A stretch of 52,035 nt of DNA, taken from NCBI GenBank assembly GCA_964389035.1, contig CAYMCH010000001.1, forward strand, positions 1-52,035, written 5' to 3'. The position numbers and the translations under genes were made by a program. Positions 21,651 to 25,212 of this stretch are shown one piece after another. The notes under the pieces are model-generated. The model was not told where the DNA came from and ran no database searches. It saw nothing but the letters and a program-made list of their open reading frames with translations. Each line of letters starts with the position of its first letter. Within the stretch, counting starts at the first letter, position 1. This stretch comes from an uncultured Candidatus Saccharibacteria bacterium (lineage in GTDB: Bacteria > Patescibacteriota > UBA1384 > XYA2-FULL-43-10).

Positions 21651-21661
21651 TTGAAAACTTT

Positions 21662-21700
21662 GTCGAATTTACTCAACGAAGCGCGAACTTTTTTCGAACA
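21662..21700. repeat. Left terminal inverted repeat of the island
   Basis: The reverse complement tgttcgaaaaaagttcgcgcttcgttgagtaaattcgac matches 25068-25106 at 34/39 positions. Confidence 0.8.
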
Positions 21701-21838
21701 GAATTCAAAGTAATTTTATACTTGCAAATTTCACTCTGAATTTCCAGAGCAATATTCCAATGTTCCTCCTCGCTTCGCTCGGCGTGTTTTTGTGCGGTCG
21801 CTGGAGGGGTGTGGGGAGGAAACGACCGCACGAGTTTT

Positions 21839-22117
21839 GAAAAACGGGTATAGAATTCGGTAAATCGCGTGGTGGAGGAGCCGATCCCGAACACTCGCCT
21901 TATGGATATCTCGAACTTTTGGGTCACTAATTTTGAACGATTGATATCTGCCGTGCCGGTATGATTTATCGGCAAGTTCGGCATGTAGCACAAGAATATT
22001 GTCCATAAAATTAAGTGAAAATTTAGCTACATCTTTTCGCTTCCTCTTGCCTTTTAAGAATTCGCGCCATGAAATAAGTAAATTATCAACCGATATGATA
22101 TTATTGAAAATATGATG
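21839..22117 (-). pseudogene. Reverse transcriptase remnant (DGR-type), N-terminal ~94 codons only, no canonical start codon
   Basis: A single open frame reads HHIFNNIISVDNLLISWREFLKGKRKRKDVAKFSLNFMDNILVLHAELADKSYRHGRYQSFKISDPKVRDIHKASVRDRLLHHAIYRILYPFF. This follows the N-terminal/finger pattern of Brt-like DGR RTs (..NL..A....GKR......F......L...L....Y....Y..F.I.(D/E)PK.R.I......DR..HHA.....P.F). Similarity stops at ~21839. No palm or YxDD region appears in any frame. Confidence 0.7.
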
Positions 22118-22127
22118 CAGCCCAAAC

Positions 22128-22156
22128 CTCTCTCTCTCTCTCTCTCTCTCTCTCTC
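22128..22156. repeat. (CT)14.5 dinucleotide microsatellite
   Basis: An uninterrupted ctctct... run of 29 nt. Confidence 0.97.
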
Positions 22157-22196
22157 GAGTTGCCCCTCGATCCTTTGCCGAATAAAAGAGGGATAT

Positions 22197-22553
22197 TTGA
22201 TTTGGATTAATTTTGTTCCTCATATCGCTAGAAGTTCTCGATATACCATTGGTCAGCGAATTGAAAATAAGTTTTTAGATTTACTGGAATTATCATACAT
22301 AACCTATTTTAACGATAAAGATAAAAAGAAAGAAAAAATCTCTGAGTGTGTCTTGACCTTGGAGACACTCAAATTCATTGTTTCCATTGCATGGGAAGGC
22401 AAGATCATACCTAATAACAAGTATGAAGAATTGGCGAGAAAACTCGATGAAGCAGGTAAAATGTACGGTGGCTGGAAGAAAAATTTTGATAATCCGCAAA
22501 AAAAACCGCTCATTGTAGCACGGAAAAGAAATACTTTCGAAGACGGAACATAA
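22197..22553 (+). CDS. avd: Avd-like four-helix-bundle protein (DGR accessory variability determinant / S23-IVS family), TTG start, possibly N-terminally truncated
   Basis: ...VPHIARSSRYTIGQRIENKFLDLLELSYITYF...LETLKFIVSIAWEGKIIPNNKYEELARKLDEAGKMYGGWKKN parallels Bordetella phage bAvd (..SIPRKHG.AREMFLKCLLGQVELFIVA...RILGSWIAR). GAGGG lies 6 nt before the TTG. The frame stays open upstream to 22116 (..SILCRIKEGY..) but has no in-frame ATG. Confidence 0.7.
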   Translation: MIWINFVPHIARSSRYTIGQRIENKFLDLLELSYITYFNDKDKKKEKISECVLTLETLKFIVSIAWEGKIIPNNKYEELARKLDEAGKMYGGWKKNFDNPQKKPLIVARKRNTFEDGT

Positions 22554-22669
22554 ACTCATTGTCAGCATTCCACTTGTTGTCAGGCTTAGCCCATTTGTTG
22601 TTGAGCCACAAGCCATCGTCGTTGTGTTCCATGTTGAAGACGTTAGGGTTGCCGTTCCGGTCTGTAATT
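22538..22669 (-). repeat. DGR template repeat (TR)
   Basis: 132-nt copy that carries A (minus strand) at 19 of the 24 positions differing from the copy inside the target ORF. Non-coding. Its 3' end overlaps the 3' end of the Avd-like gene on the opposite strand. Confidence 0.78.
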
Positions 22670-22993
22670 GTGTGATCCTCCACCTATACCACTGCCCTCG
22701 CAATCTATCGGTAAAAGGCGCCGAGCTGTATTTTATTTGGGATCGAAAATCCCCGAGCATTTCACACCAAGTTTGTCTTTTTATGTAGACAAAATACGAA
22801 CCCTCTTTTGGAAGTCGTGACCGTCAGTATTCTCAATTCATGTTCACCGGAGAGGTTTCGCCAAGCCGTAGCCGGGCAATTCAATCTCTCTGTATTTAGT
22901 ATATCAAAAATTTGTATCGTGCGGCTTCGCCGCATAAGTATCAAAGTATCTAAAACTTAAAGCTTTAAAAGTAAACAAAAAGAGATCAAAAAT

Positions 22994-24421
22994 CTAAGTT
23001 GCCTGAGAAACTTGGCGAAGACGGAACATAAACTCGCTGCCAGCATTCCACTTGCGGTCAGGCTCAGCCCACCCTTCTTTGAGCCACAAGCAATCGCCGT
23101 AGTGTTCCAGGTCGAAGACGTAATGGACGCCGCGCCGGTCTGCAATTTGCTTCATAGCAATTGTATAACAATCATCCAGAGGTTGTTCTTGATCTTTTGA
23201 TCTTTGATACGGTCCAACTACAGCCGGACAGAGTTCAAGCCCAAATTCTTCTGCTTTGGCATAAATTTGATCTGTCGTAGCACCGTCCAGAAAACCCAAA
23301 TCTTGAACTTTTAGCCGTATGGTATTAATTTGTTCAGGATTTGGTTGAGTTGTATATTCAACCCTGTCCAGCATATCTTGAGCATAGTCGTAAATTTTTA
23401 TTCCTTTTGCCTTTAATTCAGCAACCAGTTCATCCTTAGTTTTGCTACCGATCTCAAGTTCGCTCTTTCGGATTCTGCCTTCGGGGAAAGAAGTGTAAAT
23501 ATTTTCGAGATTTGGCATCTGAAATATGCCGGCAAAAAGCGGGCCGATGTAATTTTTTGTCTGTTTATGGATCTGATCTTGATTCCATGCAATTTCATTT
23601 GGCTGGCAATCCAGGACGATTGGAGCGTCTGCTTTCGGGTCCCTTTGGGAGCGAACTTCAGCAACTCGCGAATCTCTGTCGTAGTCAAAACCCTCAATCT
23701 GCGAGTTTATTTCATATAGAAAAATAAGTTCGTCTTTAGAAAGATCATCTCCTGCCTGATGTTTCTTGTAGACCAAAGTCATTTGTTTCATATCGGCAGC
23801 TTTCTTGTCGTATTTTTCGCCGCCCGGAAAAGCGTGATATTCCTGCTGGGCAATGTCAACTAACTCCGGCTCAAGCTCCTGTCTTTGATTTACGCCGCGA
23901 ATTTCACCTACTTGGTCGCCTTCCATTCTGATTGCAACTCTCGGCTCAGTGTACTGGCCGTCAGCATTTTTTGTGTAATAGACATAGAAGTCGCCACCCT
24001 GCAGATGGCCTTCGGCGCTTCCCTCGGCCGTGCACCAGCCGGTACCCTTTCCCTTAAGATCGCCCTCTAGCTTTCGCCAGTCGCCGCCCTGATCGTACTT
24101 TCGCCACTCCCCCTCAATACTCTCGCGATTCAGTTTGCCAGCGGTTTCGACTTGGGCAAAGGCGTACAAACCAGCGAAATCTTTTGATTTTAATAATCTA
24201 TCTAGATGCTCTTGCTTTTCGCTTGCTTGCGGATCATTTTGATCAATCGTTTGTTCCTGATCTTCGCCGGATAGTCGTTTGTATACCCAGCCGAGAGCTT
24301 CAGAATTAAGCTCAGGAAAGGGCGCAATTGTTTTTGGTGTTCGCTTGGAGTAGGTTAGTTTTTCCTTATCCAGCGTTCCCATTTTCCGCAAGTTACGAAC
24401 AACAAAATATCGAAACCACAT
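22994..24421 (-). CDS. DGR target protein, main (C-terminal) part; the variable region encodes the last ~45 residues
   Basis: 475-aa ORF in the track. The frame is open upstream to 24622 and overlaps the 24555..24875 ORF. The C-terminus ...IADRRGVHYVFDLEHYGDCLWLKEGWAEPDRKWNAGSEFMFRLRQVSQAT contains the VR. Confidence 0.8.
   Translation of the reverse strand: MWFRYFVVRNLRKMGTLDKEKLTYSKRTPKTIAPFPELNSEALGWVYKRLSGEDQEQTIDQNDPQASEKQEHLDRLLKSKDFAGLYAFAQVETAGKLNRESIEGEWRKYDQGGDWRKLEGDLKGKGTGWCTAEGSAEGHLQGGDFYVYYTKNADGQYTEPRVAIRMEGDQVGEIRGVNQRQELEPELVDIAQQEYHAFPGGEKYDKKAADMKQMTLVYKKHQAGDDLSKDELIFLYEINSQIEGFDYDRDSRVAEVRSQRDPKADAPIVLDCQPNEIAWNQDQIHKQTKNYIGPLFAGIFQMPNLENIYTSFPEGRIRKSELEIGSKTKDELVAELKAKGIKIYDYAQDMLDRVEYTTQPNPEQINTIRLKVQDLGFLDGATTDQIYAKAEEFGLELCPAVVGPYQRSKDQEQPLDDCYTIAMKQIADRRGVHYVFDLEHYGDCLWLKEGWAEPDRKWNAGSEFMFRLRQVSQAT
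23016..23147 (-). repeat. DGR variable repeat (VR)
   Basis: 132 nt, 108/132 identical to 22538-22669, ungapped. It ends 20 nt before the stop codon of the target ORF. Confidence 0.78.
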
Positions 24422-24554
24422 CGGCTGTTTGGCATCATTTTCGCCAAGGTAGTCGAGCCATGATTGCAGTGTCTTTCTTTGTTGTTCGGCTTTTTCTTCG
24501 ATTAAATTTTTGTATTTGTCGATAACTTCTTCATTAAATTCCAGACGTTCAATA

Positions 24555-24875
24555 TCACCACCTCGTCCTTGTTCGATCGCAAGCTTTTTTTTCTGATTCG
24601 TAAAGTCCTTGAGCCAGAGCTGTCAAAGTTTCTTCGTCTTTAGAGTCAATCGTAAATTCATCCAGAATTTTATGACTTAAACGCTCAAGACCTCGTTCAT
24701 CTGAGGATATTTTTTCGAGGCGACCCATGTATGCCCCAACACGCTCTTCGCGAGTTCTGATTTTTTCGCCCCCACTTCTGGCTTTAATCGAGGCCCTTTC
24801 TACTTCATGAGAGCCTGAAAGATCGACATATTTTTCTGCCAAGAATTCTGGTCCTGGACCGCTTCCTACTGGCAT
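24555..24875 (-). CDS. N-terminal fragment of the DGR target gene, separated from the rest by a 1-nt frameshift at an A8 run
   Basis: Good RBS (AAGGAGCAAGT-ATG). The ORF ends 30 nt after an A8 tract (24585-24592). The downstream ORF's frame is already open across that tract. Confidence 0.6.
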   Translation of the reverse strand: MPVGSGPGPEFLAEKYVDLSGSHEVERASIKARSGGEKIRTREERVGAYMGRLEKISSDERGLERLSHKILDEFTIDSKDEETLTALAQGLYESEKKACDRTRTRW

Positions 24876-24910
24876 ACTTGCTCCTTTTTTTAGCTTAAAC
24901 TTCTGATTTC

Positions 24911-24939
24911 ATTATTGATCAATTATTCAAATTTTTCAA
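24911..24939 (-). promoter_or_regulatory. Putative sigma70-type promoter of the target gene
   Basis: On the minus strand: TTGAAA (24939-24934), 17 nt, AATAAT (24916-24911). This lies ~35 nt upstream of the ATG at 24875. Confidence 0.35.
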
Positions 24940-25067
24940 CCTTTTTCTTCTCATATTAGAAATTCGCCAAGCAATCACAGCGAGCGAAGGCGGAAGTATT
25001 TAGCATATACTCTAGAAATTTAAGGAGAAATACGCTATTATGTATTTGTTATTTGCTTTCGGAGTTT

Positions 25068-25106
25068 TGTTCGAAATAAGTTCGAACTTCGTTCAGCAAA
25101 TTCGAC
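25068..25106. repeat. Right terminal inverted repeat of the island
   Basis: tgttcgaaataagttcgaacttcgttcagcaaattcgac is the inverted partner of 21662-21700. Confidence 0.8.
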
Positions 25107-25212
25107 CATCAAAATATTAATGCCTTGAATCACATATTTTTAATGTTCGTGGCGATTGTTATATGATCAAAAAATATTAAACAATTTTAATAATTTGATT
25201 AAAGGAGGAAAC

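Follow-up and report, generated by a model that had tools for sequence, protein, structure and literature searches.

Inverted end modules around a diversity-generating retroelement island inserted at a tRNA-Pro gene of a Candidatus Saccharibacteria bacterium

Phages, plasmids and integrative and conjugative elements (ICEs) are known carriers of diversity-generating retroelements (DGRs), and the spread of the very numerous chromosomal DGRs in bacteria of the candidate phyla radiation (CPR) is largely unexplored. Staphylococcal cassette chromosome (SCC) elements carry their cargo at the 3' end of a conserved gene, with short direct and degenerate inverted repeats, the recombinases CcrAB or CcrC, and recombinase-less 'pseudo-SCC' copies. 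The att sites of serine integrases are imperfect palindromes around a 2-bp crossover. An element integrated at such a palindromic site therefore ends in inverted half-sites, as we propose here for an island that carries a DGR cassette in a stretch of 52,035 nt (hereafter the window) from an uncultured Candidatus Saccharibacteria bacterium (assembly GCA_964389035.1, contig CAYMCH010000001.1, positions 1-52,035, forward strand). The island is foreign DNA inserted directly after the CCA end of tRNA-Pro(GGG). Its end repeats match those of related cassettes that lie beside a gene encoding a large serine recombinase, and such cassettes may therefore move as small units. We hold with moderate confidence that the island is a decaying relic, lacking the recombinase, of a compact DGR mini-element with site-specific integration, and that the arms of the inverted repeat are its att half-sites.

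By analogy, SCC cassettes with their ccr-less derivatives and the elements mobilised by serine integrases would be the closest functional counterparts. The island resembles the former as a site-specific cassette at the 3' end of a gene, and the recombinase of its relatives finds CcrB, CcrA and CcrC among its best NCBIfam families, far under their cut-offs. It differs from them in its target (a tRNA gene, instead of rlmH/orfX), in its cargo (a DGR), in its host (CPR) and in its arms, which in this family measure 50-330 nt, are thus much longer, and overlap the 3' end of the recombinase gene itself; the relatives' recombinase is also only distantly related to the Ccr proteins (111 bits vs a cut-off of 900). 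With the serine-integrase elements (A118, phiC31, Bxb1), the relatives' recombinase shares the Resolvase, Recombinase and Zn-ribbon architecture. However, the island is only about 3.5 kb long, contains no phage genes and has no relatives in IMG/VR, its palindrome arms are several times longer than the known att half-sites, and this copy has no recombinase. As in the DGRs of phage BPP-1 and of the Bacteroides ICEs, a target gene with its variable repeat (VR), a template repeat (TR), avd and a reverse transcriptase (RT) gene appear to move horizontally as a unit. Here, however, the DGR makes up about the whole element (the cassette with or without one recombinase), rather than cargo on a phage or ICE of 40-100 kb; in addition, avd is encoded on the opposite strand, with an overlap at the start of RT, and this copy is defective. 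The DGR-bearing ICEs of Bacteroides leave direct repeats at tRNA-Lys (bioRxiv 10.1101/2024.11.15.621889). Wu et al. 2018 (PMC5758913) surveyed DGRs, reported variation in their architecture and stated that next to nothing was known of the context of those in CPR. In the literature, as far as it could be searched, we came across no account of a DGR-only cassette that has inverted repeats at its boundaries and a serine recombinase associated with it.

Insertion of the island at tRNA-Pro(GGG)

The 719-aa host protein encoded to the right of the island gave access to two syntenic host relatives (L196 and L197), in which its homologs are 67% and 50% identical, respectively. The window and both relatives have the gene order TPR, PSP1, holB, zf_Tbcl, L28, M50, tRNA-Pro(GGG) and a gene encoding a 7xx-aa protein in common. 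In L196, tRNA-Pro is followed by 143 nt and then by the 7xx-aa gene; in L197, a 142-aa open reading frame (ORF) stands between the two. No DGR sequence was found at the tRNA-Pro locus of either relative. Both loci are therefore empty sites, and the island is an insertion at the CCA end of the tRNA gene. Moreover, the sequence after the tRNA in L196 (TTGCATCATATATATTT) aligns with the right flank of the island in the window (TTGAATCACATATTTTT), from about position 25124. The island thus occupies precisely the boundary between the CCA end and what originally followed it, and host sequence resumes within about 15 nt past the right junction. A search for host relatives with the M50 peptidase returned only distant matches (Clostridia and similar, 31-48% identity), without synteny information. 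A DGR-only cassette is here demonstrably an insertion, with an empty site in relatives. Although this copy is a dead relic, it is of value in that it shows the two junctions and the empty site cleanly.

The base composition of the island is also distinct. Positions 21651-25106 have 42.3% G+C, compared with 32.8% in the rest of the window, and windows of the same length taken elsewhere average 32.5% (sd 2.3), with a maximum of 38.2%. A preliminary description of this DNA, made from the sequence alone, had estimated 45-48% for the island. This is somewhat high for the island as a whole, but the shift itself holds in formal windows. The G+C peak inside the island corresponds to the target gene (51-52%). 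The window's copy of the target has 45% G+C, against 33% for the genome, while target homologs elsewhere track the G+C of their hosts (42/43%, 52.5/51% and 38/37%); cassettes of the same lineage range from 38% to 42%. The horizontal acquisition proposed in the preliminary description is thus supported by the empty sites, by the alignment of the L196 flank and by the G+C shift.

Inverted repeats lie at both ends of the island (Table 1). As first described, the left repeat starts 11 nt past the 3' end of tRNA-Pro(GGG), and the reverse complement of 21662-21700 matches 25068-25106 at 34 of 39 positions; a repeat search widens this core pair to 45 nt (84% identity). We evaluated the arms by comparing local alignment scores with those of 1000 dinucleotide shuffles. 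The extension towards the interior, to about 135-140 nt, was recovered in this way, as the roughly 90 nt beyond the core score 25 (shuffles 9.2 +/- 1.7, maximum 17), and the full arms reach a score of 49 (shuffles 11.2 +/- 1.9). The TTCGCTCG core reported within this extension is present at 21774-21781 and, as its reverse complement, at 24981-24988. In the whole 52 kb, the 20-nt core consensus occurs in the two arms only, where shuffles predict 0 occurrences. The hairpin of the left side has no counterpart in the right arm. The possibility that the right arm is a conserved leader of the target gene was rejected, as no such arm precedes the target in L002, L003, L005, L008 and L009.

End modules and the serine recombinase of related cassettes

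Using a profile built from four Avd sequences, we retrieved 79 related loci (L117-L195) from metagenomes. Two of them (L145 and L136) overlap at >99% identity and were counted as one locus, and L141 is the same as L144. In addition, an exact look-up of avd gave as sole match a 2.7-kb contig from an independent assembly (L001, SRR29243433), which is near-identical to the window: a (CT)10 tract in place of (CT)14 and 2 substitutions separate them over 2.7 kb. An exact look-up of the target protein returned no record. Searches of IMG/VR with the RT fragment, the Avd profile and the recombinase found no relatives.

Inverted copies of the end module were found on both sides of four independent cassettes, namely those of the window, L014, L139 and L191, so that the earlier view of a cassette bounded by terminal inverted repeats (TIRs) extends beyond this locus. 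The arms of the L191 cassette are 155 nt long and identical, those of L139 are identical over at least 106 nt and reach the contig end, and those of L014 extend over about 53 nt with about 89% identity (score 40, shuffles 10.5 +/- 1.6). Single arms stand in the expected place in L118, L155, L170, L152 and L143, and an nhmmer profile of the arm detects it in the last four of these loci. The left arm of the window is homologous to L118 1249-1450, to the c1 and c2 copies of L191, and to L155 and L170. The right arm is 93% identical to L118 1249-1291, in a match that extends to 25114. The outer boundary of the arm has a T-run, G.YG and GT in common between the window, L118, L170 and L191.

The arm and its hairpin lie just 3' of the RT stop codon in L118, L126, L139, L143 and L154, and the module is also present in L004; the end module is thus native to the cassette. 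The loop of the hairpin (GGAGGGGTNTGGGGAGGAA) is 19 nt long, invariant at all but one position and contains two GGAGG motifs, with stems that are wholly different between loci. Several loci show a second hairpin, with a conserved TGGGGRAWKGATT loop, ahead of the one with the 19-nt loop. An intrinsic terminator was ruled out, since no consistent U-tract is found on either strand, and the pattern of the hairpin loop gave 22 matches in IMG/VR, all in unrelated contexts. Rfam models detected only the tRNA in positions 20500-26500.

Such conserved G-rich loops on varying stems, always placed just 3' of the RT stop, could also belong to a duplicated regulatory or structural element, either an RNA or a protein-binding site, that the DGR uses upstream of the target and downstream of RT and that has no role in mobility. 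However, the most conserved part of the window arms is homologous to the 3' coding end of the recombinase gene and not to the hairpins, and the right arm has no hairpin at all. Furthermore, most long contigs of the family carry working-looking cassettes without flanking copies, and the outer ends of the arms coincide with the boundaries of the insertion. We therefore see only a very slim chance that the module serves the DGR alone.

The recombinase in question is a protein of 505-580 aa with Resolvase, Recombinase and Zn_ribbon_recom domains. Its best NCBIfam matches are CcrB, XisF, CcrA and CcrC, all well under the family cut-offs, and its PDB match is the A118 integrase. Its gene lies directly outside an arm in seven distinct loci: on the RT side in four (L118, L139, L155 and L141), on the target side in two (L191 and L014) and after the TR in one (L152). 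The 3' end of the gene overlaps the end module. Inverted repeats also enclose the recombinase gene of L191 (325 nt, 97% identity) and that of L152 (at least 147 nt, 98.6%), and they include the last 17-52 codons of the gene. It is to this C-terminal coding end that the best-conserved part of the window arms is homologous (FLMVRLYSEARTFFQEKF* in L191, ILMVEFAERSSNLFRTK in the right arm of the window). To judge from these similarities, the repeats of the window look like end modules of a site-specific recombinase rather than the TIRs of a classical transposase. No recombinase ORF is present in the island, and tblastn with the relatives' serine recombinase found no homolog in the window, in agreement with the preliminary description. 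Its definition of the island as a non-autonomous DGR module stands for the first part, the recombinase being found only beside related cassettes; an intact DGR, however, it is not, with RT, avd and target all defective.

Direct repeats of tRNA ends complete this picture. The L157 cassette has a 24-nt direct repeat of the tRNA-Gln(UUG) 3' end on both sides. At L145/L136, cassettes are stacked in tandem behind tRNA-Gln(CUG), with a pseudo-tRNA end before each of them and a direct repeat of 15 nt. A tRNA gene in the same orientation, at most about 350 nt from the RT-distal end, was found in 3 distinct loci (the window included) out of about 35 long ones. These positions indicate that the DGR lineage integrates at tRNA genes. 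The cassette family thus recurrently shows inverted end modules, a neighbouring large serine recombinase and direct repeats of tRNA ends, and the proposed compact DGR mini-element is common in CPR/Patescibacteria.

The same arrangement recalls Hin/Gin segments and shufflons, where inverted repeats surround a segment, a serine recombinase lies beside or inside it and one repeat overlaps a coding 3' end. The arms might accordingly be substrates for a serine recombinase, or for RecA, flipping either the cassette or the recombinase gene, with the window as a frozen relic; a flip would change which flank reads into the target or into RT, and would be compatible with integration. In support of such a switch, the arms of L139 (100%) and L191 (97-100%) are long and near-perfect, which points to ongoing exchange between arms. 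Moreover, the cassette turns either its RT end or its target end to the recombinase, the recombinase gene of L191 and L152 stands between inverted repeats made with its own 3' end, and contigs often break at the arms (L139, L152). However, flipping the whole cassette leaves its interior unchanged and has no obvious consequence for a DGR, and the island of the window is found in one orientation in two independent assemblies (the window and L001). The recombinase is of the large integrase/Ccr type, not a small Hin/Gin invertase, and arms of 50-330 nt compare with about 26 bp in those systems. Finally, the empty sites show an insertion, which inversion alone leaves unexplained. An inversion switch is on these grounds an unlikely account of the island.

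Junctions and a possible integration site

Each junction contains a 4-nt A-run exactly 4 nt outside the arm. The left one reads CGACCATTG-AAAA-CTTT-GTCGAATTT and the right one AAATTCGAC-CATC-AAAA-TATTAATGCC, so that the bases abutting the arms differ (CTTT and CATC, respectively). For the integrated mini-element that we favour, the following course may be proposed. The end module would consist of a core of CGAAC repeats and of hairpins, and two inverted copies of it would form the 'terminal inverted repeats'. The arms would represent the P and P' half-sites of a palindromic attP-like site, which can be reconstructed as AAATTCGAC CATC AAAA CTTT GTCGAATTT, the reconstructed junction between the arms containing AAATTCGACCATCAAAACTTTGTCGAATTT. 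Integration into an attB at the tRNA end would separate the P and P' arms. After insertion, the 3' two-thirds of RT would have been deleted, the start of avd lost and the target frameshifted, and the arms would have drifted to 77-84% identity. The reconstructed site is symmetric about AAAA, as the sites of serine recombinases are, and such an enzyme may have acted on the arms at this position. A crossover precisely at AAAA is nevertheless doubtful, because A-runs are common, the arms extend far over the known half-sites, and the motif CGACCAT, found at both junctions, also suits the core of a tyrosine integrase.

Several points weigh against this integration by a serine recombinase. No recombinase was found in the island or in the 52-kb window. 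The att half-sites of characterised serine integrases measure about 25 bp, whereas the repeats here span about 135 nt. The symmetry of the junctions rests on A-runs in A-rich DNA, and would arise by chance in about 7% of cases according to a rough estimate. CGACCAT (p ~0.03) fits the core of a tyrosine integrase equally well. The loci L157 and L136 have long direct repeats of tRNA ends, which are more typical of tyrosine integrases, and no recombinase is visible in those loci. In addition, a recombinase outside a repeat-bounded cassette, on either side, fits inversion or shuffling as well as integration, and both the flanking repeats and the recombinase are missing from many long contigs of the family.

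The A-runs would also be expected of a classical non-autonomous TIR transposon, moved by a DDE transposase acting in trans and leaving AAAA as a 4-bp target-site duplication. The repeats at both ends of the island, the symmetric position of AAAA outside both arms and the lack of a recombinase inside the island agree with this. However, the A-runs stand 4 nt off the ends of the repeats, and the intervening 4 nt are unlike each other. The A-run and its adjacent bases are, moreover, conserved in the arms of L118, L191 and L170, so that the A-run is part of the element, not of the target. The 52-kb window contains no other copy of the arm, and insertion at tRNA 3' ends recurs in the family, with long direct repeats. 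Among the 79 related loci, no arm-associated DDE transposase was noted in a search that was not systematic, whereas the serine recombinase was. We consider a transposon of this kind very unlikely.

The second feature of the junctions is a direct repeat of CGACCAT, at 21645-21651 and 25103-25109. Between the 30-nt windows at the two junctions, direct repeats of this length or longer appeared in 148 of 5000 shuffles (p ~0.03). The att-like duplication suggested in the preliminary description therefore exists at both junctions but is weak. The right boundary gives no support for a more extended, degenerate copy of the 3' end of tRNA-Pro, with only GTTCA and CGACCA matching. With CGACCAT as a 7-bp core, the island could be the work of a tyrosine integrase, and the inverted repeats could be arm-type binding sites or an unrelated structure. 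Insertion at the 3' end of a tRNA gene with CGACCAT at both junctions, the relatives with 15-24-nt direct repeats of tRNA-Gln ends and the DGR-bearing ICE of Bacteroides, inserted at tRNA-Lys with direct repeats, are all in line with this. On the other side, no tyrosine integrase was noticed beside any cassette of the family, although no systematic search was made. A repeat of 7 nt is only weakly significant and falls under the usual length of at least 15 nt for tRNA-end repeats, and the right CGACCAT overlaps the end of the inverted repeat, where it may be part of the palindrome. We accordingly give little weight to a tyrosine integrase.

Returning to the mini-element relic, a recombinase acting on the arms would make the cassette a compact, portable hypermutation module with its own att sites, and a potentially useful tool. 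More broadly, one DGR lineage of CPR bacteria may in itself form a minimal mobile element, made of a cassette of about 3.5 kb (target, TR, avd and RT) and one large serine recombinase between long palindromic end modules with conserved hairpins, with integration at tRNA 3' ends, tandem stacking, flipping and recombinase-less relics; we put this forward tentatively. If true, it would provide a dedicated vehicle for 'evolvability cassettes' and could help to explain the abundance of DGRs in CPR genomes.

State of the DGR and other features of the locus

Table 1. Features of the island and of its junctions; positions are those of the window, unless a related locus is named.
Feature	Position	Strand	Remarks
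tRNA-Pro(GGG)	21574..21650	+	ARAGORN; Rfam tRNA, 62.5 bits; island starts directly past CCA end
Left junction (putative attL)	21645..21661	+	CGACCAT TG AAAA CTTT; A-run 21654-21657, 4 nt outside repeat
Left arm	21662..21793	+	Core 21662-21706 with CGAAC repeats; weaker homology to ~21793
Predicted hairpin	21795..21834	+	19-nt loop GGAGGGGTGTGGGGAGGAA; loop kept in relatives, stems differ
Predicted hairpin in relatives	L118 1407-1450; L126 ~112-160; L139 1355-1390, 5862-5900; L154 ~370-405; L004 8241-8285		
RT remnant	21838..22125	-	N-terminal ~96 codons; from translation and homologs
(CT)14 microsatellite	22128..22157		In overlapping divergent 5' ends of avd and RT
avd (bAvd-like accessory gene)	22158..22553	+	Pfam PF22296, 7.7e-15, match from profile position 18
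TR	22538..22669	-	132-nt direct repeat with VR, 82%
VR	23016..23147	-	3' end of target; ends 22 nt before stop codon
Target gene	22994..24875	-	~627 codons; homologs 610-680 aa
Sigma-70-like promoter match	24911..24939	-	TTGAAA-17-AATAAT, consensus match only; between right arm and target start
Right arm	24975..25106	-	Core 25062-25106
Right junction (putative attR)	25103..25115	+	CGACCAT C AAAA T; A-run 25111-25114, 4 nt outside repeat

On the minus strand of the window, the cassette has the order target with VR, TR, avd (on the opposite strand) and RT. A local inversion of avd was ruled out, as this is the usual layout of the DGR lineage, in which avd overlaps the start of RT. The RT remnant is 65-80% identical to the N-termini of DGR RTs, and tblastn with a full RT covers only residues 1-81 of the query. 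It departs from the family consensus after ...YRILYPFF (HHAIYRILYPFF) and is followed by the hairpin, the catalytic domains being absent. Of the relatives, L118 is the closest (Avd 86% identical). It aligns collinearly with window 21839-23235 (79% identity), and between the hairpin and the RT break it has about 775 nt more, corresponding to the rest of a 300-aa RT. All homologs of the RT fragment among the matches listed (at least 120) have at most 173 aa. A systematically split RT or an intron was ruled out, the short homologs being fragments at contig ends with a normal continuation, and full RTs are present in L118, L191 and many other loci. A 393-aa ORF of L009 was also rejected as an RT.

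The other parts of the cassette also appear to be altered. In a comparison of frames with relatives, avd has no usable start codon upstream of TTG 22197. In the target, one extra A in an A7 run (A8, i.e. T8 at 24585-24592 on the plus strand) causes a +1 frameshift and splits the gene into ORFs of 106 and 475 aa. Genuine inactivation, phase variation of the tract or an assembly error could each account for this homopolymer frameshift, the site being covered by the window assembly alone. The TR and VR, which are separated by a 346-nt spacer, differ at 24 positions, of which 19 are adenines of the TR; the DGR was therefore once active. The five remaining, non-A changes suggest later drift. The VR is identical in the window and L001, neither of the two substitutions falling within it, so that no ongoing diversification of the VR was seen between these two samples. 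With a truncated RT, an avd without start, a frameshifted target and a static VR, the DGR of the window is, as far as its sequence can tell, a dead relic.

Translated as SLSL in avd and as ERER in RT, the (CT)n tract at the avd/RT overlap is a frequent point of contig breakage (L008), and slippage in it could switch both genes. Shorter versions occur natively in L008, L014 and L011, and a foreign insertion was ruled out, the tract being native to the avd/RT overlap of the family.

DGRs are commonly decayed in these genomes: an orphan TR-like copy without RT or avd is present in L009 (9231-9351), the RT of L012 has an internal deletion of its catalytic region (8001-8720), and avd contains an in-frame stop in L003/L004. 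In addition, RT is truncated at about 45 codons in L004 (~7950), about 96 in the window (21838) and about 130 in L014 (~5003), each time abutting an arm of the end module, which in L004 has the opposite orientation. This recurrence suggests that deletions or rearrangements may be promoted at the arms.

The arrangement of related cassettes is also variable. When RT, avd and TR are held fixed, the target is found in either orientation among the 79 loci. The VR lies beside the TR in about 27 loci, as direct repeats 350-700 nt apart, and distal to it in about 30 loci, where the two are inverted repeats about 2.1 kb apart. The target stands on the other side of RT in L152 and L188. The contig of L191 (16,641 nt) has an exact period of 8,416 nt (1-158 and 8417-8574), and could represent a small circular element traversed twice, with the DGR, the serine recombinase and three other genes. 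In L136, an IS200-like ORF (Y1 transposase-like, judged by its translation) lies between the element end and RT, at about 800-1300. It is an unrelated insertion, missing from L145, which is otherwise 99.7% identical.

Finally, two features outside the island concern the tRNA-Pro locus itself. A 226-aa membrane-protein ORF (25156-25836, 35.5% G+C) lies between the island and the 719-aa gene; it has no counterpart in L196, and the 142-aa ORF found at the same spot in L197 is unrelated to it. Variation at the site downstream of tRNA-Pro is therefore not confined to the DGR island. On the other side of the tRNA gene, an intergenic element of about 200 nt between the M50 gene and tRNA-Pro is strongly conserved (window 20822-21030, plus strand; L196 ~3722-3930; L197 ~9138-9345). 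It has no Rfam match at E<=1, and of the 65 pairs predicted by RNAalifold, 11 show compensatory changes, which makes it a candidate unannotated structured RNA of this lineage.

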